A stretch of DNA of 64,000 nt from Acidobacteriota bacterium (GTDB lineage: Bacteria; Acidobacteriota; UBA6911), in contig OY761556.1 in NCBI GenBank assembly GCA_963664705.1, positions 6,368,001-6,432,000 on the forward strand, given 5' to 3'. A program made the translations under genes and the position numbers. Every line of letters starts with the position of its first letter. Positions within the stretch are counted from its first letter, which is position 1. The notes beneath the pieces were generated by a model, which searched no databases, was not told the origin of the DNA, and saw nothing but the letters and a program-made list of their open reading frames with translations. Below are positions 3,794 to 57,861 of the stretch, piece by piece.

Positions 3794-5065
3794 TTAGGCA
3801 CCGACGATGATTGTCCAGATCATCGCTGCCGTCAGAGCCACCATGATAATGCTCGTTGCGATTGTAATAATGTTGGCAAGCCTTGTGTTCCGGTATTTCC
3901 CCATCAGACCTTTTTGATTCACCAGGCGAAGCATGAAATATAGTACAAAGGGCAGCAAGATGCCGTTGGCCACCTGTGAGAGCAAAATCAGCTTAATCAG
4001 TGGAATGTGTGGGATCAGCACGACTCCAGCGCCGAAGATAATTAGAGCAGTGTAGATGGTGTAGTATGTCGGAGCTTCTGAAAACCTCTTATTTATTCCG
4101 GACTCAAATCCAAGTCCCTCGCATATGTTATAGGTTGTAGCTAACGGTAAAATCGCAGCCGACATCAACGCTGCATTTATCAGTCCCAGCGCAAACAATA
4201 CGGATGCGAATTGACCGGCCAACGGCTTGAGGGCAACTGCCGCATCGGCGGCATCCCCAATATTATGGATGCCATTAACGTGCAATGTTGCGCCACAGGA
4301 CACGATGATAAAAAAGGCCACGATGTCCGTGACGAGACAACCTATAATCACGTCCCATTTGCTCCATCGATATTGATCGGCGGTGATGCCCTTTTCCACG
4401 ATTGAGGCCTGCAGATAGAACTGCATCCAAGGAGTAATCGTCGTACCAACCAATCCGACTACCATCACGAGATACTCCGAAGAACGAGTTGTCCCTTCGG
4501 GAACAAATGTGTCCCGGATAGCAGCCATCCAGTTCGGATGCGCCATAATGGCTGACCCGGCATATCCAAAATAGATGAGCGAAAGAAACAACAGCACTCG
4601 TTCCACAGGCTTGTACCTGCCGAAAACGATGAGCCCCCAAACCGACAATGCGCCGATTGGCACAGTGATGTATTTGCTCAAACCGAAAATGCCGAGTCCC
4701 GAAGCAATCCCTGCAAATTCGGCGGCGATATTGCCGAGGTCGGCCAAGCCGAATATGAGCATAGTTAAGAAAGTTGCACGGAACCCGAACTCCTCACGAA
4801 TCAGGTCAGACAGGCCTTTTCCGGTAATTGCGCCCATGCGCGCAGCCATCTCCTGCACAACAATGAGTGCAATCGTGGTCGGAATAAGGGTCCACAAGAG
4901 CGCATAGCCGAATTTCGCTCCCGCCTGCGAATACGTCAGAATGCCTCCGGGATCATTATCAACATTGGCGGTGATGAATCCCGGGCCGAGTATTGCGATA
5001 AATGCCAATATCCTATAACGGAGGATTTTGGTAGGTTTTAGAATCCTGTTTTGCAGTTCAGACAT
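3794..5065 (-). CDS. NRAMP-related Mg2+ transporter (NRMT/NrmT clade)
   Basis: GPGFITANVDNDPGGI (DND(A/P)GG type instead of DPGN). TM6 GTTITPW has Thr where Nramps have the metal-binding Met. Start placed at ATG 5065 after a GGAGGAG RBS. Lies downstream of an M-box. Confidence 0.85.
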   Translation of the reverse strand: MSELQNRILKPTKILRYRILAFIAILGPGFITANVDNDPGGILTYSQAGAKFGYALLWTLIPTTIALIVVQEMAARMGAITGKGLSDLIREEFGFRATFLTMLIFGLADLGNIAAEFAGIASGLGIFGLSKYITVPIGALSVWGLIVFGRYKPVERVLLFLSLIYFGYAGSAIMAHPNWMAAIRDTFVPEGTTRSSEYLVMVVGLVGTTITPWMQFYLQASIVEKGITADQYRWSKWDVIIGCLVTDIVAFFIIVSCGATLHVNGIHNIGDAADAAVALKPLAGQFASVLFALGLINAALMSAAILPLATTYNICEGLGFESGINKRFSEAPTYYTIYTALIIFGAGVVLIPHIPLIKLILLSQVANGILLPFVLYFMLRLVNQKGLMGKYRNTRLANIITIATSIIMVALTAAMIWTIIVGA

Positions 5066-5284
5066 GATCTCCTCCGTCAGAATGCGCACTTTGAGGAGTC
5101 GGGGGCCCTTATGGAGAAACTGCCTCATCCCTCGCATTCACCGCACGAATCTGCGGCAAATGCTGCGGGCGAAGCGATATGGGGTATCAGATCACCAGCA
5201 GATCTTCCGCAGAAAAATTCTCACTACAGCCTCTACTCGGAGGCTCGTCTTTTTCTGATCTCATATAGCTTTCTGGAGGCAGAT

Positions 5285-5318: not shown

Positions 5319-5356
5319 GGAGAAATGGCTCAATGCCTGAAGGGTATCAGCCGGAT

Positions 5357-5524
5357 TCCCCCACTGGTTTAAGCTTCAGCACCGCGCACCGTGAGAGGTC
5401 CGAAGACCTCAGCCACCTTAGGAAAACCCTTAACCCGGGAGTTCCTGTTCTACCCTAATCCGGCATCTTTGGATACCATAGGGCAGTGGCGTGTTTGTAC
5501 GTGGGAGCCTCGCTTACCGAGGAT
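5357..5524 (-). ncRNA. M-box (ykoK) Mg2+ riboswitch
   Basis: Minus strand ...GAGGCTCC...gccactgccc...ccAAAGATGCC...gggtAGAACAGG...taaggtggct...gtGCTGAAGCt... follows the ykoK consensus order; upstream of a Mg2+ transporter. Confidence 0.9.
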
Positions 5525-5619
5525 CCTTACAATTCGCTGAGCCTTAAAATGCATGATTTAAGACCCGTGAAAAAAATAGGCTTGGATTCAGGACATGTCA
5601 AGCAGTATGCATCTTTTTG

Positions 5620-5768: not shown

Positions 5769-6617
5769 TTAAGCAAGCTTGGTGGCTTGAGCTTGAAAAA
5801 ACTCCGCGTTCCAAAGCTCCAAGGATGGCAATTCATTTGATTTTACGAACCTGCGAACGTCCTCACGGGCTTGTTTCCAATCAATGGCCTTGATTCGTTC
5901 ATTCAATCGTTCGAGACACCAGGACCTATCCGCTTTGACATTCTTTCCCTTCCAAGGACCTGTTTGATTTATTGCCGAGGAGAGCAATTCATAATTCGCC
6001 GGAGTCCGGCGAGCGGTATACCAGACAAAATCGTACCAATCCCGCCCCTTCAGATATTCACGGCATAGCAATGCATGAAGCTTGCCGGCGTAGAGGCTTG
6101 ACAGATCAAATACGCAGACGGCCGAAAGGAAAGGAAAGTCCACGTGCCTGGTTTCGAAGGTTGCACCTTCCGGCGGATTCGTATCCACTTCAACCTTGAT
6201 CCTCATCTTGCGCATCGGACCTGATATCGGTCTGAAATTTAGTTGGAGCAGTTTGCCGAGCGAATCATCCTTTACAAATGCTTTGCGCACTGTCTGTCCG
6301 ACCTTCGAACGGTCATCCATCTGGAGTTCAAATCCGTAGGCCGTCAGTTCCTTTTTCGCTGTGTCGAGATAGGGCTGCAATTTAAATGATGAGTCCGGTT
6401 CTTGCAGGGCAAAATCAAGGTCTTCAGAAAAACGGTTCAATCCGTGGAAAATTCGTAGACAGGTGCCGCCCTGAAATCCGGCCTTCTGGAAGAAATCCGT
6501 TCGTCCCAGTGCTGCCAACAAAATCTCCTGGGTGATTTCGCGGAGGGCTTGTTCTTCCTCAAGACTCGAACGGCAGTTATATCCGTTCAGCCGATCCTGG
6601 ATTATCCGTACACTCAT
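5769..6617 (-). CDS. AbiEii/AbiGii-family nucleotidyltransferase toxin (type IV TA)
   Basis: FQGGTCLRIFHGLNRFSEDLDF, K-L-H-A and GRDWYD motifs. Confidence 0.92.
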   Translation of the reverse strand: MSVRIIQDRLNGYNCRSSLEEEQALREITQEILLAALGRTDFFQKAGFQGGTCLRIFHGLNRFSEDLDFALQEPDSSFKLQPYLDTAKKELTAYGFELQMDDRSKVGQTVRKAFVKDDSLGKLLQLNFRPISGPMRKMRIKVEVDTNPPEGATFETRHVDFPFLSAVCVFDLSSLYAGKLHALLCREYLKGRDWYDFVWYTARRTPANYELLSSAINQTGPWKGKNVKADRSWCLERLNERIKAIDWKQAREDVRRFVKSNELPSLELWNAEFFQAQATKLA

Positions 6618-7276
6618 CTCTTCAGGTCCTTTCGCAATCCTTTAAGAAATCGCCGAACTCGCTGGGAAGAATAGTTGTTGATCAAAAGTTCAACGATCTC
6701 TGAGTCGATGCCTGCCAGCGAGTTTTCATCCACTCGCAGGCTTTCGATGACCGGCTCTGCGGATGTCCAATCAAGTCTGTGCGCATAGACGTAATCGGCC
6801 AGGGCTTTCAACGGAGATGCTATCAGGAAGCTTTCGCCGGCGAGAAAACTTGGTTCATTCCCATCCTGCTTTTCAATGCGAGTGACTTCTGCATAGAAGA
6901 CCTTCTGCGGAATCCGCGTGAAACTGAAATGCCCGAGAGGCGTCTCAAATTCGCGGGCACGATCCATGGAGGCGCTTGTAATAGCGTATACCGCTTCGGG
7001 GATCCAACCATGGTACGACAATGAAGTTTCCAGGCTGATATAGCTGGGTCCATGGATTAACTGGGCGAATATCAGCGGGTCGGGCTTTCGTCGCAGATAC
7101 TTGGGGGCAAGGCAATAAAGCCCACGGTGGATCCGGATCACCTCATTCGATTTCAGAGCCCGTTTGAGAAGAGCGAATTGGCGATTTGACGTTCCGCCAA
7201 CCCACTGCGAAAGCTCCAACAGGGTAAAGGCGCCAGTATCTGATTTCTCCAGAACGGTTTCCGTCAAACTTTGCAT
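6614..7276 (-). CDS. AbiEi-family antitoxin
   Basis: wHTH-type IHRGLY, PSYISLETSLSYHGWIPE and ASPLKALAD motifs; 4-bp overlap with the toxin. Confidence 0.88.
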   Translation of the reverse strand: MQSLTETVLEKSDTGAFTLLELSQWVGGTSNRQFALLKRALKSNEVIRIHRGLYCLAPKYLRRKPDPLIFAQLIHGPSYISLETSLSYHGWIPEAVYAITSASMDRAREFETPLGHFSFTRIPQKVFYAEVTRIEKQDGNEPSFLAGESFLIASPLKALADYVYAHRLDWTSAEPVIESLRVDENSLAGIDSEIVELLINNYSSQRVRRFLKGLRKDLKR

Positions 7277-21794: not shown

Positions 21795-22436
21795 ATGGAG
21801 GGAATAGAAAAGACTTATTTTCATAGTTTGTATCAGTTGGTTGCGACGCTGAACTCAACGCGTTCTGCCGAGAATATCTTCCACTCTATTGTTGAGGATG
21901 TGGCAAAGGCAATGGACGCGAAGGGCTGTTCATTGTTGTTGCTTACGCCTGATAGAAAAGAACTCATGCGCATCACAGCCTATGGGTTGAGCGACTGGTA
22001 TGCCCGAATCGGACCTGCCTTAGCTGACAAGAGCATGTCAGAGTCTCTGGAAGGCGAAGTAGTGGCGGTGTTGGACGCGACTACGGATGAAAGGGTGCAA
22101 TTCAGAAAACAGGTTGCACAGGAGGGGATAGCCTCCATTCTCAGTGTTCCGGTTAAGTTGAGAGAGACAGTCATCGGTGTTATGCGGGTTTATTCTTCTG
22201 AGCAGCGTCAATTCACCGATACAGATGCCTCCTTTGCCAGTGCGGCGGCGAATTTTGGCGCCATTGCATTGGAAAGCGCAAAATTTTACCAGACCCTGCA
22301 GAAAAGCTATGACGATCTTCGGGAGGAACTGCTGCAACGGAATTCAAATCTTGGCTATGAGTGGTCAGCGGAAGGGTCTATCGTAGCTGCTCCAAAGGAA
22401 GATGTAGAATTCCCATACGCGCCTCCGGGAGGTTAG
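21795..22436 (+). CDS. Stand-alone GAF domain protein
   Basis: AKGCSLLLL...EGIASILSVPV...VIGVMRVY...FT..D...A.ALE GAF signature; GGAGG RBS; no output domain. Confidence 0.85.
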   Translation: MEGIEKTYFHSLYQLVATLNSTRSAENIFHSIVEDVAKAMDAKGCSLLLLTPDRKELMRITAYGLSDWYARIGPALADKSMSESLEGEVVAVLDATTDERVQFRKQVAQEGIASILSVPVKLRETVIGVMRVYSSEQRQFTDTDASFASAAANFGAIALESAKFYQTLQKSYDDLREELLQRNSNLGYEWSAEGSIVAAPKEDVEFPYAPPGG

Positions 22437-22528
22437 CTGCCGGTACAGTACCACTGGTCTGCTTGTCTGCTCCGTTGGGTGCGAACGAATAGCGGCCGGG
22501 ATCAGAGCCAACCTGATCCTGGCCCACT

Positions 22529-23230
22529 CTATCGACGCGCATTCCGTAACACTGAGGACATTTTGTCCGCCACATCCTTTGAAAGTCCGCTTTCCTGTAA
22601 GCGCTTTACCGCACTTTCTACGTCATACCGGATTCGCTTCAAAATCACTTCGCCATCTTCCCAAACGGCTAAACAGCCGCGCGGGTCGCCATCGGTAGGC
22701 ATGCCTAGGCTGCCGGGATTCACCACTGTCAATCGGCCAATTTTTCTTATAAATGGCCAATGAGTATGGCCAACAAACAGCCACTCTTCCTGATCTGATA
22801 GTTCTCCAACCGCAGCCAGCCATTCTGATTCAGAAGCATCGCCATTCAGATATTCAAAAAGAGGATCGCGCGGCGTAGCGTGTATCAGATGTAACGTAGC
22901 GCCTTCCGCCCGATAGATGGATCCGGCTGGAAGTGAACGCATATAGTCCATCGATTCCTGGCTTATCACTGAACGAAAATGAGAACGCGTGGCAATCGAG
23001 AGCGCATAAGAATTGGAAGAACTGCGGCAGTCAGCTCCGGTTGCCATCGCGAAATCATGATTCCCGCTGATGGCGGTTGCTTCTCTCTCTCGAACCCAGC
23101 GCACCGCCTCTTCCGGTGAAGCGCCGTAGTCCACTATATCCCCGAGAACCAGCAGATCATCGAATTGTTCATCGATGGACTGCAAAGCATCGATATTGGC
23201 GTGGATATCGGTAAGAATTAGATAGCGCAC
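22529..23230 (-). CDS. Calcineurin-like metallophosphoesterase (YfcE/MJ0912 family)
   Basis: DIHAN, LGDIVDYG, GNHD, GHTH and NPGS motifs. Confidence 0.92.
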   Translation of the reverse strand: MRYLILTDIHANIDALQSIDEQFDDLLVLGDIVDYGASPEEAVRWVREREATAISGNHDFAMATGADCRSSSNSYALSIATRSHFRSVISQESMDYMRSLPAGSIYRAEGATLHLIHATPRDPLFEYLNGDASESEWLAAVGELSDQEEWLFVGHTHWPFIRKIGRLTVVNPGSLGMPTDGDPRGCLAVWEDGEVILKRIRYDVESAVKRLQESGLSKDVADKMSSVLRNARR

Positions 23231-23243
23231 CTGCGGGCCTCCT

Positions 23244-24452
23244 CTATTTCAAAATTCTAGGCATCAACGCGGGATCTTTCCGCACAGACATGAGCAACGG
23301 AATTGAGGCAAATTGAGACAACATTGAGAATCCTATTACCCACATCATCGAGAGTTCATAGAGATAACCCATGAGCGCGCTTCCCAAAAACCAGAAGATT
23401 CCATAACCGGTATTGAAGATGCCATATGCAGTGCCCCGCTTGTCGGCCGGAACAATTTCTGCAACAGCCGCTCTCATGACAGATTCCTGTGCTCCCATGC
23501 CCGCGCCCCAGAGAACCATACCAGTGAGACTCGTGAAAAAACCTCCAAGCAGAACCAGGGGTGCAAAGAATACCGACACAAGGACAGAAATAATCAGGAC
23601 GATGATACCCCTGCGGTCGAAAAGCCGTCCAAAAATCAATGCCGCAATAGCATCGACTCCCATCGCTACGGCATAGAAAATCGGAATCCAGTCGCGTGGA
23701 ACTGTAGCGGCCTTTTGGAAATGGAAAGCGATCAAAGGAAAATCCGCATAACCTGCCGCAACTAGAGCCATTGCCAGCACGTAGATCCGGAAAACCTTAG
23801 AGAGCCCTTCTGCCCGCAATGGCGGAGCGGCCGGTTCAAGGCTGCGAGGACGCGGATATAGCAGTGCTGCGGTTGCCAACACGCAAATTGCAAGTATTGC
23901 TGGTATGAGCAGGACAGCAAAACCGTTTCTGTAACTCCCCCTGAAATACAGAATTGCTGCCACGATAAGCGGTCCAAGTATGGCGCCGATCTGGTCCATC
24001 GCCTCGTGTAGAGCGAAGCCCCACCCGCGTCCCATTTCCGAGGTGGCATGGGACAGCATGACGTCTCGTACAGGAGTCCGCACTCCCTTGCCAGTGCGCT
24101 CGGCTATCATCAAAAGCGCTGCGGCTTGCCAACTGCCGGCCAGTGCGAGAAGCGGAACGGCAATCATATTTACAGCGTACCCGAAGATTGTTATTCCCCA
24201 ATATTTTCCTGTCCTGTCCGCGAAATAACCTGAAACCAAGCGCACGCAATAGCCGATCAATTCTCCTAGGCCTGAAACAAAACCAACAATTATGGCATTC
24301 GCACCCAAGAGAGCCAGAAACGGACCGGCAATACTGCGCGCGCCCTCATAGGTGATGTCTGCGAAGAGACTCACTGCCCCCAACAAAATGACAAACATTA
24401 CAGCGGGACGACGCACAGTATTTTGGCGGGCTTTGGATTCAGGCATATGCAA
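23244..24452 (-). CDS. MFS transporter
   Basis: About 12 TM segments; VSLFADITYE, SGYFADRTG, GKGVRTPVRD and GRLFDRRG motifs. Confidence 0.92.
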   Translation of the reverse strand: MHMPESKARQNTVRRPAVMFVILLGAVSLFADITYEGARSIAGPFLALLGANAIIVGFVSGLGELIGYCVRLVSGYFADRTGKYWGITIFGYAVNMIAVPLLALAGSWQAAALLMIAERTGKGVRTPVRDVMLSHATSEMGRGWGFALHEAMDQIGAILGPLIVAAILYFRGSYRNGFAVLLIPAILAICVLATAALLYPRPRSLEPAAPPLRAEGLSKVFRIYVLAMALVAAGYADFPLIAFHFQKAATVPRDWIPIFYAVAMGVDAIAALIFGRLFDRRGIIVLIISVLVSVFFAPLVLLGGFFTSLTGMVLWGAGMGAQESVMRAAVAEIVPADKRGTAYGIFNTGYGIFWFLGSALMGYLYELSMMWVIGFSMLSQFASIPLLMSVRKDPALMPRILK

Positions 24453-24471
24453 TCATCGGAACATATAATCG

Positions 24472-25755
24472 TTAGATCGGGGATTTAAACACGGCCGCGC
24501 TTCCAAGCTCTGCTTCAATTTCCAGGAGCCGGTTGTATTTCGCAATTCGCTCACTCCTGCAGGCAGAGCCGCTTTTGATTTGCCCCCCACCCATGGCAAC
24601 CGCAAAGTCTGCCATGAACGCGTCTTCAGTTTCACCGGAGCGATGAGAGATGACAAAGCCCCAACCGGCTTTCCTGCAGAGCTGAATCGCTTCTATGGTT
24701 TCCGTTACGCTTCCGATCTGGTTCAGCTTGATGAGAACAGCATTGGTCGACTTTTCAGCAATTCCGCGCGCGATGAATTTGGTGTTCGTTACATACAGAT
24801 CATCACCCACAATCTGAATTTTTGATCCCAGCGCGGCCGTATGTTCGCGGAAACCATCCCAGTCGTTCTCAGCCAGGCCATCTTCAATGGAGATCACTTG
24901 ATATTTATCGATCCAGGTCTTGTAGAGGGCCGTCATCTCAGCGCTTGTCTTTTTGCCCTGGCCGGACTTGGAGAGGTTGTAAACGCCGCCTTCGAAGAAT
25001 GAGCTGGCTGCCGGATCCAGAGCGATGCCGATATCTTTGCCGGGTTTATATCCTGCGCTCTGAATCGCCTCGACGATTACCTCGCAGGCTTCATCGTTGC
25101 TTTTGAGATTTGGCGCGAATCCACCTTCATCTCCCACGGCCGTGGCATACCCCTTTTTCTTGAGTATCTTCTTCAATGTGTGAAAGACTTCAGCGCTGTA
25201 GCGAAGTCCTTCGGCAAAAGTCGGAGCCCCGATAGGCATTACCATGAACTCCTGGAGGTCAACGCTGTTGTCGGCATGCTTTCCACCATTGAGGATATTC
25301 ATCATCGGCACGGGAACCTGAACGGCGCCGGGTCCGCCAAGATAAGCGTACAGCGGAAGATTGGCAGAAAGAGCTGCCGCGCGCGCCACAGCCATAGAGA
25401 CGCCGAGAATCGCATTCGCTCCCAAATTGGTTTTGTTGGGCGTTCCATCCAGATCAATCATGGCGCGGTCGATTTCTACCTGGAGGCTGGGATTCATACC
25501 AACGATTTTTGGAGCGATGGTCTTATTGACATTAGTTACAGCCTTTAGCACGCCTTTGCCGTCATAGCGTTTTTTATCATCGTCCCGCAGCTCGCAGGCC
25601 TCATTTTCTCCCGTGGAGGCTCCGGATGGCACGGATGCACTTGCGATTACCCCATTCTCCAGGGTCACAAAGGCTCGAAGAGTCGGATTCCCTCGTGAAT
25701 CCAAAATTTCCATGGCTCTAACTGCATTAATTTTTTGATTTCTCTTATGGCTCAT
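24472..25755 (-). CDS. eno: Enolase (phosphopyruvate hydratase)
   Basis: [43 protein letters not shown] and SHRSGETED motifs; start at ATG 25755 after AAGGAG. Confidence 0.98.
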
Positions 25756-25810
25756 GATTTCTCCTTTTCGAATAAGGATCTCTCGGTCCAAAGCTATGCC
25801 GACAACGCGA

Positions 25811-27487
25811 TTATTGCAGCCTGATCGTGTTTTTCATCAATTCTATTTCTTCAAGACTTGTCCGGATCTCCTGCGAATCCGAACGTGTTGTCGAGAGCAG
25901 TGCTTCGATGGTCAGGATCTGTTCATGCACATTTTTCTCGGCATCGCGTTGCATTTTCAGAATTGCGTTATTGATATTCTCGGTCCACTGCGATGCTAAA
26001 CGTGACAGGTTCTTTTCAGTTTCATAGGGAATCCGATTTATGAAGTGCTTGTCCGCCCAGGACCGAAACAGCCACATCGGAATTACAAACCAGAGCAAGT
26101 CAGTGTTGAACATGAATAGGTTGCCTATCGCGATGTCTGGTATGGTTGGCCTCTTTAGCTCGATCTCGAACGGCTCAACAGAAAAGCGCATGCCTAGAGC
26201 CTGTTCGATATTGCCGGCAAGACGATCGCGGAATCCCTGTACTGCTCTCGTCAAAGTCTCACGTGCCTCCTCGAGGGAAGCAATAAACAGGTCTCCGTCT
26301 CTGAGAGAAATCTCCTTCATTTCACGCCGCATAGACTCATCGAGCCAGCCCTCGAATGCGCGGCTCAGATTCCAGAGGTTCGATTGCAGCCCGGACAGCT
26401 TTTCCCTAAGCTCTAGCGTGATCCGCTTTTTGATATCGGGTCTCAGTTCTTCCATCCGTTTCATGAGCCAGGGGCGCGTCCGGCCGGCGCATTCTGCTGC
26501 TAATGCCTGCAATTCCATCCGGACCGATTCATGGCTGGTCTTCTCGTTCAGGATTTGCATCTTGAGCCTGGACCTGTCAGCATCCATGCGCTCCGCAGCA
26601 GCCAGAGCCAGAGAAAGATATTCCGTGGCCTTACTGAGTAATGAACCAAATTTGAATTGGGCGATCTCATAACGGGTGGTATCGCTGTTCTCCACCAGTG
26701 GAAGCAAAAGCTCGTGGTCCAGTGTTAATTGCAGGTGCTCATAATCCTGACGTACTGAAAACGGCACGATCTTAAACTCGGAACCGAATTCCTTCATCAG
26801 TTCCGCGCGGATGAATTCCGTGATTTCTTGCCTCTCGCTTTCGGTCACCAGATCCGATTTTGTAAGTAGGATGACAATCTTCGGCGTGTAACCGAGCAGG
26901 GTGCGGATGAGTTCGACATCATGTTTGGACAGCGGAGGATCTACGCTGACGGTCACCAGTGCTAGTCCCACTTTAGGCAACCAATCCAATGCCATTTCGG
27001 TATTGTGCTGAAACACGCTCTCCAGCCCGGGAGTGTCCACAAATTGCAGGCAACGATAAGGCTTCAGCGAAGGCAACTCGATGGTAACCGAAGCGACCTT
27101 TTTCATGTTCATCGGGTTTTCAGCTTCGGAAACAAATAATTCTACAGATTCTAGAGGGACAGTCTCCGATTTGCCGCCGTAGTACTGAACTGTCGTCCGT
27201 TCTTGCGGGCTATAGCGGAGACGTGTGATGACTGCAGTAACCGGAGTCACACCGACCGGCAAGACAGATCTCTTGGCAAGCAGATTTAGAAGCGAACTTT
27301 TTCCCGCCTTGAACCGGCCGAAAACCCCGACATCGATCAGGTCTTCCGCCTCCAGAACTGATCCGCAGGCCTCCAAATTGGGCTGGATTGCAGAGAGAGA
27401 GTACTTCTCCTGAATGACTTGGATTCGTTCCAGGACATCTCTAAGAGTGCCGTTCGCTTTACCGATTATTTTAGGATGGGCCATCAC
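25811..27487 (-). CDS. Bacterial dynamin-like GTPase A
   Basis: G1 [11 protein letters not shown]2 GVTPVT, G3 DTPG, G4 TKSD, a long helical stalk and a hydrophobic paddle [11 protein letters not shown]. Confidence 0.88.
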
Positions 27488-27496
27488 TTAGTCCTG

Positions 27497-27536
27497 AAAG
27501 CAAAAACCCCACCTCGGAAATTCCCGGGCGGGGTTC
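27497..27536 (-). terminator. Intrinsic terminator in the fluoride riboswitch 1 leader
   Basis: AACCCCGCCCGGGAA-tttCCGAGGTGGGGTTTTTGCTTT. Confidence 0.75.
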
Positions 27537-27579
27537 TTATTCTCAAACTATGCCCTACCCTGGTGTCGGTTGAGGTTCG

Positions 27580-27628
27580 GGTAGGAGTTATCAGGCCATC
27601 GGCCGGTTATCTGGCGAACTCCATCGCC
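27580..27628 (-). ncRNA. Fluoride (crcB) riboswitch 1
   Basis: GGCGATGGAGTTCGCC-agatAACC-ggcc-gat-ggcc-TGATAACTCCTACC; promoter TTGCGC/TATGAT just upstream. Confidence 0.93.
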
Positions 27629-27679
27629 AAAACATCATCATAACAACGGCACTAATGCTGCGCAAGTCAGTGTGAAGGC

Positions 27680-28105
27680 TTAGCTCTTCACTATCAGTAC
27701 GCTGCAATGCGCGTGATCGCTGACACGGTCCGCCGTGTCGCCCAGCAACCGTCCCCACAATCCGGAGTGGTCGCTGTGACCAATGATGATCAGATCACAT
27801 TGCTTCTCGTCCGCCGCCATGACAATCGTTTTTGCGGGATGGCCCGAACGAGACTCGCATTCAATGGCAATACCGTACTGCTTTGCAATGGCCTCAACTT
27901 CCCCACGACGCTCTTTGAAGTATTCCTGCGCAGCTTCCGTCTCCTCTTCGAACTCCCCAGGCAAATCCGAGTAACGTGGAAGCGGCTCTCGAACCCAGAG
28001 AGCCGTGAACCTGGCGTCATACTCTTTAGCCAATATTGCGGCTCTTTGCAGAGCCTTTTTTGAACTGTTCGATCCGTCATAGCCCACGAGGATGTTTTTG
28101 AACAT
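27680..28105 (-). CDS. Universal stress protein
   Basis: FKNILVGYDGS...DLIIIG...LLGDTADRV...AHCSVLIVK. Confidence 0.95.
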   Translation of the reverse strand: MFKNILVGYDGSNSSKKALQRAAILAKEYDARFTALWVREPLPRYSDLPGEFEEETEAAQEYFKERRGEVEAIAKQYGIAIECESRSGHPAKTIVMAADEKQCDLIIIGHSDHSGLWGRLLGDTADRVSDHAHCSVLIVKS

Positions 28106-28112
28106 TTGTTCC

Positions 28113-29330
28113 TCACTTTCCGCTGGTTATCGGAGCCTTCGCGCTTTTACCATTGATTCTTCGAGTGTATGTAACGCCCCACTCGATCATCGTCTCGATC
28201 TTCGGTTGAAAGAGTTTCTGAGCGATAAGGGTCGGCACAAATGCGCTCAGAATGACTACTGTCACAAGAATCGTATATTGCTTCTCATCGATGATCTTAT
28301 TCTGAAGGCCGAAAAGTGCAGAAATCGTACCGAAGGTCAGTCCGGTTGCCATGAGCAAGGTGGTGTAATTCGCTTCCCGGGTGGCCATGTAAAAGGCCTT
28401 GGTCGATGGTCAGACTCCCAGAAATTTCGTTGCGAGCTTCAATCCCAGCAAAACCACAATTATGCCCAGCGATGCCCATAGTGCGGGGAGTGAAACGTAA
28501 AGACCGGCTTTTATGAAGTAGAACGGAGTGAAGATTGCGAAAGCGATACTGCGCATACGGTGCACCAGCGTTTTATCGCGAAGGAATACACCTGCCACTA
28601 CCAGACCGACCAGATAAGCCGGGAGAACCGCTTCACTCTTGGCGGTCGACGCGAGTCCCCCCAAGAAGAAAAGAGTGAGAAAGATGAACTTTACTTCAGG
28701 CTCACTGACGCGTGTCGCGCCGAATGTATCGATCAGGAGCCTCGTCCACTTTGGTAGGAACCATAATGCGATCGATAGAACCACAACGAAAACCACAAGC
28801 CAGATGTCGAATTTGGCGAATAGGGTACCAAGAGCAAGAACGGTTCCGAAATCCGTTATGAAGCATGCCGCCAGAATCGTTTTGCCGAGGGCCGTCTCCC
28901 CAAGCCCGCCCTCAATCATAACGGCATAAACAACCGCGACAGATGTGGTCGAAAGGGCTATCCCGGCGATCTGCGCCTGGTGCAACGGCCACCCCAGCAC
29001 ATACTGTGCGAATATCCAGACGAAAACAAACGGAAGCAGAAAAGAGAGGATACCGATCGTGAGGCTGGCGCGAAGACTGGAACGCAGAGAAGCGGGATCG
29101 ATCTCAGCGCCTGCAAGGAATGTCAATACGCCGCTTCCGAGCATTGCCAGAAAGTTGGTCCATTCTGTAGTCTTCAGGATGTGGTGTTGGGCGCCGAACT
29201 GAAAATTCCCTGCGATTACTCCGACAACAATTTCGATCAAAGCTACTGAAATACCTGTGCGAATCGAGACTAGGCTGGCAACGAAGGCCAGCGCCATCCA
29301 TATGGCGGCTACATACCAGATATTATCCAT
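28113..29330 (-). pseudogene. Cation:proton antiporter (CPA2/Na_H_Exchanger) interrupted by one in-frame TGA
   Basis: TFLAGAEID, ALSTTSVAVV, ACFITD and FTPFYF motifs. The frame continues KFLGV*PSTKAFYMATREANYTTLLMATGLTFG through TGA 28412-28410. Confidence 0.85.
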
Positions 29331-29343
29331 GTTGTTCCTTGAG

Positions 29344-29703
29344 CTAGGTTCCCGTTTTTTCAGGAGGCACTTGCGAGGACCTGTAATCTATCACCTTCGC
29401 TTGTTCCAAAGTAACAAGGCCTCCGTTCATCATCCCATCGATTGCAGAAAGGAACGCGTTGATCCTCTCTTCAGTATCGATAATTTCAACAACCAGTGGC
29501 AGGTCCGACGAGATGTGCAGGGGCTTGGCCGCATGCAACCTGCTGGACAAACCATACCCCAAAGGACCTCGCAGCACGGTGGCGCCGGCCATATGCATTT
29601 GGCGGGCCTTGAGAACCAGGGCTTCATAAAGAGGTTGGTGCTTCCATCGGTCGCTTTCGCCAAGGAAGATTCGCAACAGCATCGCATCGTGTGGGAGATG
29701 CAT
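29344..29703 (-). CDS. DUF190 (PII-like, COG1993) protein
   Basis: LLRIFLGESD...PLYEALV...AGATVLRG..GYG...DLPLVVEIID; start after AAGGAG. Confidence 0.92.
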   Translation of the reverse strand: MHLPHDAMLLRIFLGESDRWKHQPLYEALVLKARQMHMAGATVLRGPLGYGLSSRLHAAKPLHISSDLPLVVEIIDTEERINAFLSAIDGMMNGGLVTLEQAKVIDYRSSQVPPEKTGT

Positions 29704-29846
29704 ATCAGGCTCCTTCATAAGAACAGATTCCTGGAACGCTATTCCCAATCCAAGCCCCGTCTGATTCTTCAGGTGAAGTATGCCGAAATTCTAGAAGAAA
29801 AACTGGTGCTGCCACTCACTTCATGCCGTATACCGAATTCGGGCAT

Positions 29847-29886
29847 AAAAAAACTCCTACCGAATCACGTTGGTCCGGGTAGGAGT
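29847..29886 (-). terminator. Terminator overlapping the 3' end of fluoride riboswitch 2
   Basis: ACTCCTACC...GGTAGGAGT-TTTTTT. Confidence 0.85.
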
Positions 29887-29948
29887 CATCAGCTCTGATG
29901 ATTTCAGGCGGTTTCTCACCATCTGGCGAGCAGGCAAACTCCATTGCC
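29878..29948 (-). ncRNA. Fluoride (crcB) riboswitch 2
   Basis: GGCAATGGAGTTTGCC-(extra hairpin)-AAACCGC...GCTGATGACTCCTACC. Confidence 0.92.
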
Positions 29949-30097
29949 TATAAACATTACTTTATACGTGTGCGGTTACCTTGCGCAAGCATCTTCACAT
30001 AGCAACATAAGGAACGATTAGGCTGAAGATTTATAATCTGATGCGAATTCCTCGCGATTGACATGAACCCGTAGGCTTGGATAACCTAGTTCTCAGA

Positions 30098-30147
30098 GGC
30101 GATGGAGTTCGCCCTTAACCATCTCCATGAGATTGATGACTCCTACC
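30098..30147 (+). ncRNA. Fluoride (crcB) riboswitch 3
   Basis: GGCGATGGAGTTCGCC-cttAACC-atctc-cat-gagat-TGATGACTCCTACC; TTGACA at 30058. Confidence 0.93.
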
Positions 30148-30177
30148 TGGAAAACTGGCCGGTAGGAGTTTTTTTTT
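30139..30177 (+). terminator. Terminator overlapping the 3' end of fluoride riboswitch 3
   Basis: ACTCCTACC...GGTAGGAGT followed by a T run. Confidence 0.85.
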
Positions 30178-30204
30178 ACGAAAATTCAAAACCGGCCGCA
30201 ATAA

Positions 30205-32262
30205 TTGGAGTCCACGGTGGCAGGTTTAAATGAGAATCACAAGCGCAGGCTGGTTGCCGCGTTTGGGCATGCCGACGAGCTGTTGACCCGGTGCCTCAAT
30301 GCCATGTCGCCTTCTAGACCCGGTCAGTTTTCACGTTATGTTCACGACATGTCCCCTTCTGATCAGCACTGGGTTGAGAGTTATATCGGAAAGATTCGCG
30401 AACAAATCTACCGCCTGATGCAGAGGTTTGAGGTGGAGGCGCCGTCTCCGTCTATAGCTTCGAGTTGGGCGCTGAAGACCGGCCTCATATCGCTTGACAT
30501 CTCTCTGGAAGATCTCTACCCCGATCAAATGAAGGGCTACGGGGCAATTGACGAAACGACAGCAGGCGAACTTACATGGACTCTTCAGGAAGTTCGGAGG
30601 CTCTTGAACCAGTTATTTGCTTTTCTGGCAGATGCGGGCGTAGCACAGGAAAAGCGGATACTTCAGCTCAAGGCAGAGCCGTCCCTCGTGAGCATGCTTC
30701 ATCAGTATGCGGCGATCATTTCGCGGCACCACCTCGTCGAGTTTCTCCCAACCCTGAACTCAATAACGCGCAAACTCGAGTCACACCGATATGAAATAGC
30801 GGTGTTCGGGCGCGTAAGCTCCGGGAAGTCTTCTCTGATAAACGAGCTTCTGGGTATTCAGTTGCTGCCGGTGGGTACCACGCCGATTACCGCTGTTCCA
30901 ATCCATATCGTGGCTGGACCCCAGCCGCGGCTACGCGTGACTTTCCTGGATCGAACGGTTGCAATGCGCGCAGAAGCTCTCCCGGAATTTGCGACTGAGC
31001 AGCTTAATCCGGCCAACTCAAAAGGTGTGGTTGGACTTGAACTTTCGGTCCCATCAAAACGCGTGCAGGATGGAGTAGCCTTTGTAGACACTCCCGGAAT
31101 CGCATCCCTCGCAACCACAGGTACAAAGCTTGCCTATGCTTACCTGCCGGACTGCGACTTTGCATTAGTCCTGGTTGACAGCCAATCGACTCTGGGACGG
31201 GATGACCTGGATATTTTGAGAGCGCTCCACACGTCTGGAATACCCTCAGCGGTTTTGATCACCAAATGCGATCTTCTTTCCCGGGAGGAGGTCGACCGGA
31301 CAGTGGCTTATACCCGCTCAGAAATAATGGAGCACTTAGGCCTTCACCCGGACGTGGTTCCTATCAGTTCAAAAGAATCCTGGGTTCCGGAGGTAAACAG
31401 ATGGTTTGATGCTACTATCCTTCCATTATTGGCACGTGCACGGGAATCACTCAACATTTCGACAAACAGAAAATTGCAGTCATTGCGCAATTCAATGCTG
31501 GCCACGCTGGAATCAAAAGCTCGACGCACAATGGGTGCCAGGAAAAACCCAAACGAATTGGAGAGCATCCTTCGTCCAATAGACGAAAGCCTATCGGCAT
31601 TTGCACAAAGCTGGGAAGAGAAACTCGAAAACATCTTGGATTGCACTTCGGAAATTGTTGCGAATGCATCAGTGCAAATGGCGCAGGAGCCGGGCCGTGA
31701 TGGTAAGAGCCGCACGGACATACTTACAAATTCGCTTTTACGTTCTGTAATGTCCCGATGCAATCCGTTCATGAGTGAATACGAAACGTTATCTCGAACG
31801 ATTGCCGATCAGCTTCATCTTCTGGCGACAGAGGCATCAACGCCAGAACAAATCCGACAATAAGAATCTCCGAAACTTTCCGGGCTTCCATCCCCGGTAC
31901 TGTCTTTTCTGGATGGACTGGAGATTTCCGGTCCGGGTGTTTTCATGAATGTCAGTCAAGCCACACGCGAGAGGCACTTTCGCAGCGAGCTGAAGCAGGA
32001 GGCGAGCGGGCCGCTGGAAAAAGTGCTGAAAGAGTTTAAGCCACGCCTGCGACATTGGTTTCGAGAAACGATCAGTACTTTGAAGGACAGCTACCACGTA
32101 CAAACGGATCCCTTAAGGTATCGACATCAAGGTCAAGAATTCGGTGTTGCCGACGATGTAGTCAGATCTGACATCGTGTTATTGAAGCATGGCGGAAACG
32201 GGAACATGATCGATTCAAATGAAGCCGTTCTGAAGGCAAACCCTGCATACCATCTGGACTGA
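30205..32262 (+). CDS. Bacterial dynamin-like GTPase B, with an in-frame TAA at 31861 separating the C-terminal about 130 aa
   Basis: N-terminal helical extension, G1 FGRVSSGKSS, G2 GTTPIT, G3 DTPG, G4 TKCD. ORFs 30205-31863 and 31945-32262 are in the same frame and joined by open codons (EQIRQ*ESPKLSGLP). Confidence 0.85.
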
Positions 32263-32265
32263 CAA

Positions 32266-32955
32266 ATGCTCTTTGGCAGGAAAAGGGAAGTCTGCAAACT
32301 GGTCCTCAATCTACGCAACGGAATAGGTACGCTCGTCTTTGGCGCTCAAGGTGTCGGGAAATCTGCCATTTTGCTGGAAGCAGCAGCCATGCTTGCTTCG
32401 GAAGGCGTTGAGGTTGTCTACGTAAATGACTGCAGATCCCGGAGGACGCTTCTTGAAGAGGCGATAAAAAACCGATGCCTCAGCAATTCGCAAATTCGGG
32501 AAATGTCCGTAAAGGACCTGCGAAATGCGTTGCTGCGGTCAGGAAAAAAACAACGCCTTTGCCTCATTCTGGATCATTTGCCAAGGCTGCATCATCCGCT
32601 GCAACATCTGATTGAGATCATGGAAGAGCATTGTGTCCTGGCATTCGGGGTGACCAGTGTCCCCGGCTCGTACGATCTTTATTTCTGGAAATTTAAGTCT
32701 CTCGAGATCAACAACCTTACCAGAAAGGCCTCTCTGGATTGGATCAATGAGGAACTCCGGAATATGAACTATTCCGAGGCGCTGAGAAAGAACATTGCCT
32801 CCGAAATCTTCCGATTAACCCGCGGGAATCCGGGCGCAATTTCCCGAACCATGTCTGCCATTAGCAAACAACCCAGGCTTGTGGACGATCCGATTCGAAT
32901 CCGGCGCATATTTGTGGATGGCAAAATAAGTCAGCTCAGTTCGAGACAACTGTGA
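32266..32955 (+). CDS. P-loop ATPase (AAA/STAND-like) of unknown function
   Basis: LFGRKRE, Walker A GAQGVGKS, Walker B LILDH, C-terminal TRGNPG motif; starts 3 bp after dynamin B. Confidence 0.75.
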   Translation: MLFGRKREVCKLVLNLRNGIGTLVFGAQGVGKSAILLEAAAMLASEGVEVVYVNDCRSRRTLLEEAIKNRCLSNSQIREMSVKDLRNALLRSGKKQRLCLILDHLPRLHHPLQHLIEIMEEHCVLAFGVTSVPGSYDLYFWKFKSLEINNLTRKASLDWINEELRNMNYSEALRKNIASEIFRLTRGNPGAISRTMSAISKQPRLVDDPIRIRRIFVDGKISQLSSRQL

Positions 32956-33473
32956 TGCATCACCTGCGTCAGGGTTTGATTCTGGAGAGCCTTCTCGGCT
33001 GGTTAGCCGTTGACACTCACCTTCTCCGCATTGACCAGGCCGACTCATACATCAGCATAAAACACCAATAAATGGATATAGGATATTAGATTGTGTAGAC
33101 AAGTATTCCACATAACAATAGAAAAACCCGCCACACTGCCGTTGCACTCCAATTAGGTATTATCACTGACCTCCGGAAGCCTTCATCTGACAAGGGTTTA
33201 CGCAGGTTGGGAATAATCCACTTTAGACCGTTTGGGATTTTATGGGATTATTAGCAATTCACTTCTCTAAGACATATGATATCAAATAGAGATTACCTGG
33301 AAGTGCAATAACCACAGGACGATCGGAGCCTGGCAAAGTTACGAATAATCGAATTATTCTGACTTCGACCATGGGATTTTGCATACACAAGTGGGCGAAG
33401 AAAGCGCAAATTCCTCTCAAAATATTTTGGGTGTCATCTCTGTATGTTGTTGATTTTGTGTAACTTGGAGAGT

Positions 33474-33522
33474 TGGTAGCGACGGGTGGATTTGAACCAC
33501 CGACCTCGGGGTTATGAATCCC
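33474..33522 (-). tRNA. 3' fragment (49 bp) of a tRNA with CAT anticodon; att-site core, not a complete tRNA
   Basis: Minus strand gggaTTCATAAccccg-aggtc-GGTGG-TTCAAAT-CCACC-cgtcgct-A-CCA. The D-arm and 5' acceptor strand are absent. Confidence 0.85.
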
Positions 33523-33716
33523 TAACCTGCCTGAACGTCGTACTAAACGGTACTAAAACCTCCTATAAATCCTGGATTCGGCGGAATTCTTTTAGGACGG
33601 TTTCGGCTCCAGTAGGATCCAGAACCGCCACACAACCGTCACACTCGCTGCTTTTGGATCAAAAAGCCATCGGCGGCGCCTGTGACAAGTTTGTTCCGAC
33701 GAATCGAGGATACAAA

Positions 33717-35774: not shown

Positions 35775-35966
35775 ATGCTAACGGGAATACGAATAATTGG
35801 TCTGGGAATATGGGTTGCGATTCTCAGTATGGCGATCTCAGCGTTGTTCTTCCGACATAGCACGGAGGAAAATGCCACGCTTATTTTCGTGGCTATCATG
35901 GACTTCATTGTGATTGCGCTCGCTGCGAAAGCCGTGCTGATAATGTGCCACAAAAAGCGAAGTTGA
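35775..35966 (+). CDS. Small hypothetical two-TM membrane protein
   Basis: 63 aa, two hydrophobic stretches, AAGGAGG upstream although distant from the ATG. Confidence 0.4.
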   Translation: MLTGIRIIGLGIWVAILSMAISALFFRHSTEENATLIFVAIMDFIVIALAAKAVLIMCHKKRS

Positions 35967-36025
35967 GAGTCCTTTTATCCATTTGGCTTCCCATGGCTCT
36001 GAAAGCAGAAAAAATCCGCTTGCTC

Positions 36026-36057
36026 TTGTCACGAAAAATACCTATTATTCGTGACAA
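36026..36057. promoter_or_regulatory. Inverted repeat, likely operator of the second AbiE operon
   Basis: TTGTCACGAA-a-AATA-cc-TATT-a-TTCGTGACAA just upstream of ATG 36074. Confidence 0.7.
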
Positions 36058-36073
36058 ATCACTCGGATCGCAT

Positions 36074-36697
36074 ATGGAACAAAACATTGCAAATAAGATA
36101 CTTTCACGGATATATGGTCTTGGTAGGGGTAAGGTGTTTACCCCAAAAGACTTCTTGGATCTGGGCAGCCACGAAATAGTGCGACAATCCTTGTCTCGAT
36201 TGGCCAAAGAAGGCAAAATCCGCCGCTTACTGAGAGGTGTTTATGAATATCCGGCATTTAGCAGGCTACTAAATGCACCGGCAAATCCGGATCCGGACAC
36301 AATCGCTCAGGCCATCGCGCGGGCACACGGGTGGACGCTCATTCCTTCTGGAGAAACGGCGCTGAATATTTTGGGTTTGTCGACGCAAGTGACAGCTCAA
36401 TGGCAGTACTACAGCGACGGACCATCCAAAAAGTTCAACTGGCAAGGCGGAACTCTGATTTTGAAGCATCGGACGAATAAGGAAACATCGAAGCTTTCTC
36501 CAATGACAGCTTTGGTGGTCCAGGCGCTCAAGGCATTGGGCGAAGATAATGTCGATAAATCTGTGCCGGCGACACTCCGGAAAAAACTAGATTCGGCCGA
36601 GCGCAATCGCGCTGTTCGAGAAGCCCGATACGTCACTTCCTGGATTTATGAAATCATCAAGAAATTAGCGGCGGAGGATAAATCACTCAATGCGTGA
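36074..36697 (+). CDS. DUF6088/AbiEi-type antitoxin
   Basis: VFTPKDFLDLGS...LSRL...IRRLLRGVY...PSGETALNILGLSTQV...SDGPS. Confidence 0.88.
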   Translation: MEQNIANKILSRIYGLGRGKVFTPKDFLDLGSHEIVRQSLSRLAKEGKIRRLLRGVYEYPAFSRLLNAPANPDPDTIAQAIARAHGWTLIPSGETALNILGLSTQVTAQWQYYSDGPSKKFNWQGGTLILKHRTNKETSKLSPMTALVVQALKALGEDNVDKSVPATLRKKLDSAERNRAVREARYVTSWIYEIIKKLAAEDKSLNA

Positions 36698-37676
36698 CGT
36701 TGCACGATTGCCGGAAAATGATCGGCGGGATCTGTTCAGGGCGGCAGCACAGAAAATGCGCATTCATGAAGCCATTGTCGAGAAAGATTTCTGGGTTTGC
36801 TGGATCTTGGATTACCTCTTTCACGACTACCCATCGAAAGATCATTTTGTTTTCAAAGGTGGAACCAGTCTTTCCAAAGCCTTTGGCGCAATCGAGAGAT
36901 TTTCAGAAGATATCGATCTTATCCTGGATTGGAAACTCCTTGGATATTCGCCGGAAGAACCGTGGCAGAAACGTAGTGCGACAAAGCAGGATGCCTTTGG
37001 CAAGGAATCCAACCGACGAACAGCCGATTTTCTCACACGAGAGTTTGTACCGGCAATTCATCAAGGTTTGTCCGAACTGATTGGACGCACCATAGGAGTA
37101 GAGGCGCGAGAACAGGATGTTCTCATAACATATCCCGCCGCATTTTCGCTTGCAGCTATTCAACCCCAGATCAGGCTTGAAATTGGTCCAATGGCGGCAT
37201 GGGTTCCCAATGAGCAGCGGGCAATTCATCCATATGCATCGGATCATTTTCCGCAATTATTCAAACAGGCTGAAACCTCGATTTGTACCATTGTGGCGGA
37301 ACGGACCTTCTGGGAAAAAGCGACAATCCTGCACCAGGAAGCACATCGCGGACCGGACAAGCCATTGCCTCGACACTATTCGCGTCACTACTACGATCTG
37401 TATAGGCTAAGCCTCCTTCCGATCCGTGATAATGCCTTCAAGAAGATCGATCTGCTGCAGGATGTGGTTCAATTCAAGATGCGGTTTTACCGTTGTCCAT
37501 GGGCTAGGTATGAAGATGCAAAGCCCGGAAGCTTGAAATTGCTGCCACCCGAGCATCACCTCGCGGAACTGAAGAGAGATTACCAGTCAATGCAGGACAT
37601 GCTTTTCGGAAAAATACCAGGTTTCGATGAAATCATGGCGCAGATTGAATCTTTGGAGAAGATGATTAACGCGTAG
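36690..37676 (+). CDS. AbiEii/AbiGii-family nucleotidyltransferase toxin
   Basis: VEKDFWV, FKGGTSLSK...IERFSEDID, ERTFWEKATILH and SRHYYD motifs. Confidence 0.93.
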   Translation: MRDVARLPENDRRDLFRAAAQKMRIHEAIVEKDFWVCWILDYLFHDYPSKDHFVFKGGTSLSKAFGAIERFSEDIDLILDWKLLGYSPEEPWQKRSATKQDAFGKESNRRTADFLTREFVPAIHQGLSELIGRTIGVEAREQDVLITYPAAFSLAAIQPQIRLEIGPMAAWVPNEQRAIHPYASDHFPQLFKQAETSICTIVAERTFWEKATILHQEAHRGPDKPLPRHYSRHYYDLYRLSLLPIRDNAFKKIDLLQDVVQFKMRFYRCPWARYEDAKPGSLKLLPPEHHLAELKRDYQSMQDMLFGKIPGFDEIMAQIESLEKMINA

Positions 37677-52925: not shown

Positions 52926-52989
52926 CCGTTTTTCATCCTCGATGTTTTGCCAGAGCACCCAATCCACGAGGTGCAGCGCAAATTTTTCT

Positions 52990-53145
52990 GTTCAGGTCTT
53001 CCGGCTTCCGGATCGTTCTACTTGCCGCGCCTTCCCATCCCATCGGACAGTGGCAATCTGCGGTTTTCGTCCCCGGTTACGGCGGCGGGTCCGCGACGGA
53101 TTTCAACCGTCTTCCCTATCGAATTTTCAAAATAGAACTTTTACA
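52990..53145 (-). ncRNA. Cobalamin riboswitch 1 (controls the tonB-nfl-cob operon)
   Basis: AGGGAAgacGGTtgAAATCCgtcGCGGaCCCgCCGCCGTAA...GCCACTG...GGGAAGG...AGCCGGAAGACCTG (B12 box). Confidence 0.95.
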
Positions 53146-53207
53146 GACAATGCGTGATGCAAGTCAAGCTAATTTCAATGTTGTTGACCCGCACCGTTGA
53201 TCGCTAT

Positions 53208-53396: not shown

Positions 53397-53529
53397 GCTG
53401 ACGCGATCCTCGCGTTGAAATTCACGAGTCGCCGAGGGGCGGGCTGGTACCTCCCATTATTGATATATGGGCATATGTTTTTCCCCTTTTGGCTAAAACC
53501 TTGAGCGATAGCAGAAAGGGTGATCAAGC

Positions 53530-57755: not shown

Positions 57756-57861
57756 AAATATCATTGCCGTTTCAGAAATGTCAACGAATTTGATTTTTGT
57801 GAAAACCCGAACGTGGATTCAAAAAGCGCTTGACTTCAAAGCGACTTGTTTGTAATTTCGC

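Follow-up and report, generated by a model that had tools for sequence, protein, structure and literature searches.

We describe here a regulatory link between fluoride riboswitches and bacterial dynamin-like proteins (DLPs), which is real, widespread and apparently unreported; the two parts are of known kinds, and no printed account of their coupling was found. Our starting point was a stretch of 64,000 nucleotides from an Acidobacteriota bacterium (contig OY761556.1, here C1), hereafter the window, which corresponds to C1:6368001-6432000 of a single-contig 6.89-Mb genome. Three fluoride riboswitches (RS1, RS2 and RS3) lie within 2.6 kb of this window, and two of them stand directly before genes of dynamin-like GTPases, RS1 leading DLP-B and RS3 leading DLP-A. 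A first-pass annotation, made from the sequence alone, had pointed to three aptamers in this region, to a divergent pair of GTPases with complete G1-G4 motifs and to a separate riboswitch for each partner; the aptamers, the motifs and the separate control all held up.

Three fluoride riboswitches and their expression platforms

All three elements match the covariance model of the fluoride riboswitch family RF01734 with 49.1-54.9 bits against a gathering score of 34 bits. They are the only fluoride riboswitches found in the genome, for which Rfam scored 150 of 964 candidates and an nhmmer search of the whole genome also returned three. In an RF01734 alignment of 24 examples, including two from the window, 88% of the cells of P1 and 99% of those of the pseudoknot are paired, and the pairing of RS2 is also visible in its own Rfam alignment.

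According to predicted folds, the aptamers are followed by expression platforms that compete with them, as in an ON switch. For RS3 (30089) and RS2 (29957), a hairpin with a U-run overlaps the 3' tail of the aptamer (z -3.4 and -4.6), and RS1 (27637) is followed by a hairpin sequestering the aptamer tail and, behind it, by a distinct terminator (z -5.0). Through its 3' arm, the first RS1 hairpin could form a duplex with the 5' arm of the second (-10 to -18 kcal/mol); this holds for the window and for three of the four relatives inspected, the fourth being folded differently. In these models the duplex would fit an antiterminator; with the aptamer locked, the terminator was still favoured in the equilibrium fold. 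Each aptamer had also been credited with both a promoter-like element and a terminator, of which the terminators are recovered by the folds but the promoters are not: a consensus scan gave none before RS1-RS3 (7 sites in the entire region versus 10.9 expected), and by eye there are only -35-like hexamers before the riboswitches. Based on the known behaviour of the family and on the terminators, fluoride very probably turns on the genes led by RS1-RS3.

On the minus strand, RS2 is followed by genes for a DUF190 protein, a cation/H+ antiporter and a universal stress protein (Usp), and RS1 by those for DLP-B, enolase, an MFS transporter and a metallophosphoesterase. On the plus strand, RS3 leads DLP-A and a small P-loop ATPase (Table 1). 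The two DLP genes are indeed divergent, but they are not neighbours, as 2.7 kb and the RS2 operon lie between them. No Fluc or CLC gene is present in the RS1-RS3 locus; a Fluc-DUF190 pair without a riboswitch exists elsewhere in the genome, with Fluc 1.8 Mb away from the locus.

Conservation of the riboswitch-DLP link

The link is not unique to this genome. We examined 160 loci, half of them DLP-B loci from GTDB genomes (the best 80 of 512, with 13 of 64 parts scanned) and half DLP-A loci from metagenomes (the best 80 of 456, with 16 of 64 parts scanned), some near-duplicates included. They were searched at a threshold of at least 20 bits with a model derived from 24 riboswitches, of which 22 came from these same loci. 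A riboswitch on the same strand and at most 400 bp upstream of the DLP gene was found in 89 of the 160 loci (45 of 80 in the DLP-B set, 44 of 80 in the DLP-A set). Together with a further 23 and 21 loci with riboswitches at most 5 kb upstream, the total amounts to 133. Three loci in each set have a riboswitch elsewhere, and 9 and 12 have none. Thirteen of these 21 initial negatives hold less than 1 kb upstream, and Rfam, run on 13 of the 21, added one riboswitch, directly upstream (L061). Of the first 16 loci given to Rfam itself, 14 had a riboswitch on the same strand ahead of the DLP gene; L083 and L086 have 3 and 415 bases upstream. The named hosts belong, among others, to the Acidobacteriota, delta-proteobacterial groups, Verrucomicrobiota, Planctomycetota, Spirochaetota, Thermoleophilia and Methylomirabilota. 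Across these loci the gene order is reshuffled (head-to-head, tandem or convergent), and A and B often keep their own riboswitches.

As a control, 151 genomes were drawn evenly from the phylum of the host, in which RF01734 (32 candidates scored per genome) and Dynamin_N were searched separately and joined by position; kin among these genomes are not independent in the counts. The Dynamin_N hits were split at a gap between 59.7 and 76.4 bits, which was set after the gap had been seen, and 32 partial rows were merged by hand into 18 genes. Among the high-scoring hits, 28 of 31 have a same-strand riboswitch at most 5 kb upstream (26 of 29 without the genome of the window), compared with 0 of 18 low-scoring dynamin genes having one on the contig. 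One of the three unlinked high-scoring hits lies at a contig end and another was probably cut off by a contig break. An unfiltered scan of 16 low-scoring loci (about 1 kb upstream) and four unlinked high-scoring or DLP-A loci gave no riboswitch. A quick tree, computed for 88 GTPase domains, sets 14 of the 16 low-scoring rows apart on a branch of their own (99% in the Shimodaira-Hasegawa-like approximate likelihood ratio test); A (100) and B (97) are sister groups (99), with type C less resolved. Judged by these genome comparisons, the riboswitch link is widespread and specific to this dynamin group.

A linked DLP occurs in 24 of the 51 riboswitch-bearing genomes. The first-pass annotation had suggested counting dynamin genes directly behind the riboswitch. 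In the phylum sample, a DLP is the first gene in 15 of 70 cases, second only to Fluc (20), followed by the CPA antiporter (7), CLC, enolase and Hyf (5 each) and MFS and DUF190 (2 each), with other genes or none in 9. This tally was made by hand for 70 of 77 riboswitch hits, omitting the three of the window's genome and the four weakest; one row (DUF190) comes from the unpublished genome G082, and no conclusion rests on it.

The expectation that the two GTPases work as an obligate heterotypic pair did not survive as a rule. With two to three candidates scored per genome, full-length A occurs in 8 of 401 genomes, in 7 of these together with B or C, while B occurs in 11 genomes and is joined by full-length A in 3 of them. 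Furthermore, five other genomes were checked, and in four of them (G201-G204) no Dynamin_N gene other than B was found. Because the pairing is asymmetric in these counts, the core role appears to belong to B or C and an accessory role to A.

The dynamin-like GTPases

Both proteins exceed the Dynamin_N cut-off of 27 bits (Table 1), and they are the only full domains in the genome, which otherwise holds two short G1-only matches. The G1-G4 motifs read GRVSSGKS, T229, DTPG and TKCD in DLP-A; in DLP-B, G1 and G2 (residue 83) are followed by DTPG and TKSD. In an alignment, the motifs are conserved in 90 A and 86 B proteins as well as in type C. DLP-A and DLP-B share 32% identity over the GTPase region. 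The model of DLP-B (predicted local distance difference test, pLDDT, 86.7) matches IniA, BDLP1 and Cj-DLP2 in fold searches, and its best sequence match in a profile search of the PDB is Cj-DLP2 (E 7e-22). For DLP-A, we relied on the full-length orthologue P0122 (86% identical, model pLDDT 83.6), which matches IniA from residue 154 on (489 residues aligned, Z 22.5, root-mean-square deviation 5.3). Neck and trunk helical bundles are present in both models, and the DLP-A of the window is without the last ~130 residues. The trunk tip of DLP-B is conserved and aromatic, with a median best hydropathy of 1.28, whereas that of DLP-A is less hydrophobic (0.94); by hydropathy, neither forms a clear transmembrane helix. 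The DLP-B tip is a candidate lipid-binding element.

In the P0122 model, the first 145 residues of DLP-A form four helices. Pfam gave no match at cut-off for this N-terminal domain save one doubtful Inhibitor_I9 match, the PDB profile search returned nothing below E 0.03 (best E 0.035), and the ESM Atlas gave no usable match to the domain and only unnamed clusters below 0.9 for a stand-alone copy. The domain exists as a separate gene in 9 of the 80 DLP-B loci, and a profile of it collected 2865 representatives, both fused and short, some of which are fragments. A complex prediction of the domain (residues 1-150) with DLP-B scored 0.00 in two runs, which gives no verdict on binding.

A third riboswitch-linked type, DLP-C, carries the G1 motif GQFKRGKS (L087:3487-5301, L106:6378-8882, L029:6593-9262). 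It is sometimes fused to DUF6062 and is the commonest type in the phylum sample.

Gene neighbourhood, gene decay and island setting

Table 1. Features of the fluoride riboswitch locus and of the adjoining island end (positions in the window)
Feature	Position	Strand	Evidence
Calcineurin-like metallophosphoesterase, last gene of the RS1 unit	22529..23230	-	PF12850 73.3 bits
MFS transporter	23244..24452	-	PF07690 128.1 bits
Enolase, second copy; other genomic copy 59.5% identical	24472..25791	-	
DLP-B, intact dynamin-like GTPase, 557 aa from ATG 27484; aromatic hydrophobic trunk tip at ~residues 452-478	25811..27487	-	Dynamin_N 75.9 bits; model, fold search, PDB profile search, hydropathy
RS1 fluoride riboswitch, leads DLP-B; followed by sequestering hairpin and terminator (27545-27495)	27575..27637	-	RF01734 49.3 bits; folds
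Universal stress protein (Usp)	27680..28105	-	PF00582 120.9 bits
Cation/H+ antiporter (CPA family), in-frame TGA at codon 307	28113..29330	-	PF00999
DUF190 (PII-like) protein	29344..29748	-	PF02641 123.6 bits
RS2 fluoride riboswitch, with insertion, leads DUF190-antiporter-Usp; terminator to ~29848	29873..29957	-	RF01734 49.1 bits; fold
RS3 fluoride riboswitch, leads DLP-A; terminator hairpin and U-run to ~30177	30089..30152	+	RF01734 54.9 bits; fold
DLP-A, dynamin-like GTPase, four-helix domain at the N-terminus; GTG 30217 as likely start; in-frame TAA 31861-31863	30205..32262	+	Pfam Dynamin_N 81 bits; translation; orthologues; model of orthologue P0122
Four-helix domain at the DLP-A N-terminus, without Pfam family; encoded on its own in DLP-B loci elsewhere	30217..30639	+	
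Small STAND/AAA-like P-loop ATPase, 3 bp past DLP-A	32266..32955	+	Weak sub-cut-off Pfam matches; neighbour tally
Attachment-site repeat: 3' half of tRNA-Met and flank, right end of ~38.8-kb island	33473..33560	-	blastn, ARAGORN

Among the 160 loci, the P-loop ATPase is the commonest non-DLP neighbour (66), followed by the antiporter (50), enolase (49), DUF190 (48), phosphoesterase and Usp (30 each), Fluc (29) and MFS (25). Of these, the antiporter, enolase, DUF190, Usp and Fluc are genes already known from the response to fluoride. Fluc often lies immediately 3' of DLP-A and the antiporter shares operons with DLP-A, while DLP-B is often the sole recognised gene behind its riboswitch. Two unclassified proteins of ~290 aa (L098:3473-4321) and 204 aa (L104:12432-13046) adjoin DLP-A in 26 and 16 loci, respectively; neither has a Pfam, NCBIfam or PADLOC match. 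Besides, four loci (L088, L093, L117, L152) show five to six fluoride riboswitches clustered in ~10-20 kb, and in L262, L266, L271, L275, L152 and L040 fluoride riboswitches head Hyf/formate-hydrogenlyase-like operons, often in genomes with DLP operons. In the window itself, a lone GAF-domain protein (21795-22436, plus strand) converges on the end of the enolase operon, and four cobalamin riboswitches are located at 52974-53409 and 57845-58319, one divergent and one tandem pair.

The stop codon reported by the first-pass annotation in one of the GTPase genes is indeed an in-frame TAA in DLP-A, where close orthologues of 678 aa have Tyr or His, and it removes the trunk tip and the last helices. 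These orthologues are 79-86% identical to DLP-A. Since the stretch past the stop is still 68-77% identical to them, the stop is recent. The antiporter is interrupted as well, by a TGA at a codon that reads Trp in genome G002, whose copy is 93% identical. The stretch 22000-33500 is covered by assembled contigs of runs X1 and X3, which show 0 differences there, although both come from one sample that may be the source of the assembly; a sequencing error behind both stops is rejected as far as this comparison allows. Recoding of TGA was also considered and set aside: the counts under translation tables 11 and 4 were not decisive, and read-through would be needed for TAA and TGA both. As both DLP-A and the antiporter carry stops, only the arm of DLP-B, enolase, MFS and phosphoesterase is likely to be fully working in this genome, and the DLP-A/DLP-B pair is probably not.

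The locus lies in an island bounded by a partial tRNA-Met. The left copy of the attachment repeat is found at C1:6362633-6362720 and the intact tRNA-Met at C1:c6522611-6522687; ARAGORN found no tRNA in the window, the piece at 33473 being half of one. A module of ParA and helix-turn-helix (HTH) genes lies behind both partial tRNA-Met copies. The island also holds an M-box-led Nramp gene, a metal ABC/TonB uptake system and an RND pump, and judging by these contents the fluoride locus is island cargo for ion homeostasis, partly decayed here. The M-box (magnesium) riboswitch lies at 5353-5528 (minus strand) of the window before the Nramp-family transporter (3794-5137). Integrated elements form a tandem array at this one tRNA-Met (C1:6316667, 6362633 and 6401473), two of them starting with near-identical ParA and HTH genes, and an integrase-like open reading frame is located at C1:6361372-6362550. 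Two AbiEii-type toxin-antitoxin modules (window 5769-7276 and 35945-37676) are distributed one per island.

Comparison with known systems

An operon of Enterobacter cloacae FRM is reportedly an example of a fluoride riboswitch (crcB motif) regulon. The locus shares with such regulons the aptamer, terminators overlapping its 3' end, and genes for enolase, cation/H+ antiporter, Usp, MFS and DUF190, with Fluc and Hyf in relatives; it differs in having a dynamin-like GTPase as first gene and neither Fluc nor CLC.

The resemblance to characterised DLPs is likewise partial. Campylobacter Cj-DLP1/Cj-DLP2 (PMC6104087) also comprise two DLPs, one with an extra N-terminal domain, but DLP-A and DLP-B are encoded in separate units with their own riboswitches, DLP-B often stands alone, and no free N-terminal helix is conserved ahead of its neck. 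The side-by-side genes in one operon, both required, that mark a Cj-type pair are not what we find. The N-terminal domain of DLP-A did not align with the Cj-DLP1 assembly domain (5owv_A residues 1-124), a comparison made only within the full-length model, and it also occurs as a separate gene. IniA, of the mycobacterial IniA/IniC system (PMC6715688), is the best fold match of both DLP-A and DLP-B and is likewise encoded by stress-inducible DLP genes; however, identity is 17-18%, induction there is by cell-wall drugs and not by a riboswitch, and no IniB is present here. Bacillus subtilis DynA (PMC8844932) offers a functional model in membrane surveillance and lysis delay, yet it is a fused double DLP of ~1190 aa, and the DLPs described here score 37-58 bits against the NF052648 cut-off of 1600. 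LeoABC/Eleos and CrfC share the dynamin GTPase domain and a mobile-island setting. However, matches to LeoA reach only 24-32 bits and lie in the G1 region (21-32 bits over all matches around G1), a full-length LeoA together with LeoBC matches in one operon was not found, and CrfC scores are ~20 bits against the NF007368 cut-off of 1146.

We found no publication linking the fluoride riboswitch or crcB with dynamin in a search that left most subscription journals uncovered, as well as the gene list of Baker et al. 2012, which may hold such genes. The word "dynamin" is absent from the main text and eight supplements of PMC2864571 and from the main text of PMC11139923.

What fluoride-induced dynamins may do

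Fluoride enters the cell in the form of HF; it makes the cytoplasm more acidic and reduces the proton-motive force needed for export by Fluc and CLC-F (PMC11139923). Genes for membrane integrity respond to fluoride (PMC11139923), and many species are lysed by it (PMC12700350). On the side of the dynamins, DynA helps to keep the membrane intact and delays lysis (PMC8844932), membrane tethering is described for the Campylobacter pair (PMC6104087), and IniA binds lipid with its trunk tip and cuts membranes (PMC6715688). Since HF entry lowers the force that drives export, fluoride lyses cells and all three dynamin systems act on membranes, we favour a fluoride-induced stabilisation of the membrane that would protect the proton-motive force during fluoride export, a reading to which we give about an even chance. 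We count in its support the riboswitches and terminators, the dynamin fold, and the conserved association with genes for exporters, the antiporter, enolase and Usp. In such a scheme, a build-up of fluoride would switch on DLP-B and DLP-A via RS1 and RS3; going by known riboswitch behaviour, binding of Mg-fluoride would prevent the terminator (RS2, RS3) or free the antiterminator strand (RS1). The DLPs would then attach to the inner membrane and stabilise it, which would maintain the proton-motive force during the export of fluoride. From its anatomy and from the examples of DynA, IniA and the Campylobacter pair, DLP-B (or DLP-C elsewhere) would be the membrane-binding core that can act alone, and DLP-A, with its less hydrophobic tip and extra four-helix domain, may be an accessory partner. 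The repair of membrane damage, or the sequestration or vesiculation of fluoride, which the first-pass annotation had proposed, are likewise putative roles.

Several observations weigh against this reading. Twenty of the 160 loci are without a riboswitch, including all three Bacteroidota loci, and 27 of the 51 riboswitch-bearing genomes are without a linked DLP, which therefore is accessory. DLP-A is truncated here, a stop-bearing remnant in genome G033 (with DLP-B intact) and split in G002, and DLP genes are split at several other loci; selection has therefore not been constant. IniA, the closest fold, performs fission and not repair in vitro (PMC6715688), and the literature seen describes no fluoride-made membrane lesions of a kind that dynamins repair.

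The membrane-cutting activity of IniA would also suit a direct role in fluoride removal, in which the dynamins bud off or compartmentalise membrane that encloses insoluble metal fluoride, or arrange Fluc and the antiporter within the membrane, with GDP-Mg-fluoride perhaps as activator. Fluoride granules of unknown make-up have been reported (PMC11139923), Fluc is often right behind DLP-A with the antiporter in its operons, and uncharacterised partners co-occur (the N-terminal domain, the 290-aa and 204-aa proteins, DUF6062 and HEAT proteins). However, DLP-B often has no recognised gene beside it behind its riboswitch, and the Fluc gene here is remote and riboswitch-free; we regard this role as unlikely. 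A more elaborate version is also unlikely in our view, in which a dedicated dynamin family would stand next to Fluc and CLC-F as a third branch of the defence against fluoride: induced by the riboswitch and also activated by a GDP-Mg-fluoride-locked G-domain dimer, they would assemble with the four-helix adaptor and the STAND-like ATPase and seal or bud membrane, removing or confining fluoride.

Fluoride may instead be a proxy cue, because it accumulates according to the pH gradient (PMC11139923), so that its cytoplasmic level would report acid stress or a collapsing gradient, against which, or against lysis in general, the dynamins would protect. The co-regulated antiporter and Hyf/formate-hydrogenlyase genes are functions of pH homeostasis, and many of the named records come from peat, bog, fen, soil or anaerobic sludge, albeit with no habitat control. 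What the aptamer reads is nevertheless fluoride, and the operons include the fluoride-specific Fluc and enolase, which leaves this explanation doubtful.

A further possibility is that the GTPases are themselves targets, trapped by Mg- or Al-fluoride with GDP in a transition-state-like form, and that the cell makes more of them, as with enolase. GDP-AlF4 is the usual means of trapping dynamins (PMC6104087), for enolase and phosphatases it is an accepted reading that the inhibited enzyme is over-expressed (PMC11139923), and many products of the regulon handle phosphate or nucleotides (enolase, phosphoesterase, P-loop ATPase, Usp and the PII-like DUF190). We consider such compensation quite improbable, as enolase has an unregulated second genomic copy whereas the DLPs have none, and the other dynamins of the phylum, which should be equally inhibitable, are never riboswitch-linked (0 of 18). 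That the DLPs are anti-phage genes or neutral cargo amid fluoride genes would agree with the tRNA-Met island and its AbiE-type toxin-antitoxin genes, the patchy distribution (45 of 401 genomes), the broken copies and the weak LeoA matches, but it is very unlikely given that the riboswitch directly precedes the DLP start in 89 of 160 loci from many phyla, that separate riboswitches survive rearrangement and that the LeoA matches are restricted to the G1 region.

Implications

The cellular role of bacterial DLPs has remained open largely because their triggers are unknown, and here the riboswitch names the trigger. Moreover, a DLP heads the fluoride riboswitch more often than CLC, the antiporter or enolase (15 versus 5, 7 and 5 of 70). 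As the copy in the window is partly decayed, its relatives are the better material for tests. Taken together, fluoride-linked DLPs are probably a component of the response to fluoride stress that has been overlooked. They offer a candidate answer to the variation in fluoride tolerance beyond exporters, and may provide a part for engineering defluorinating microbes.

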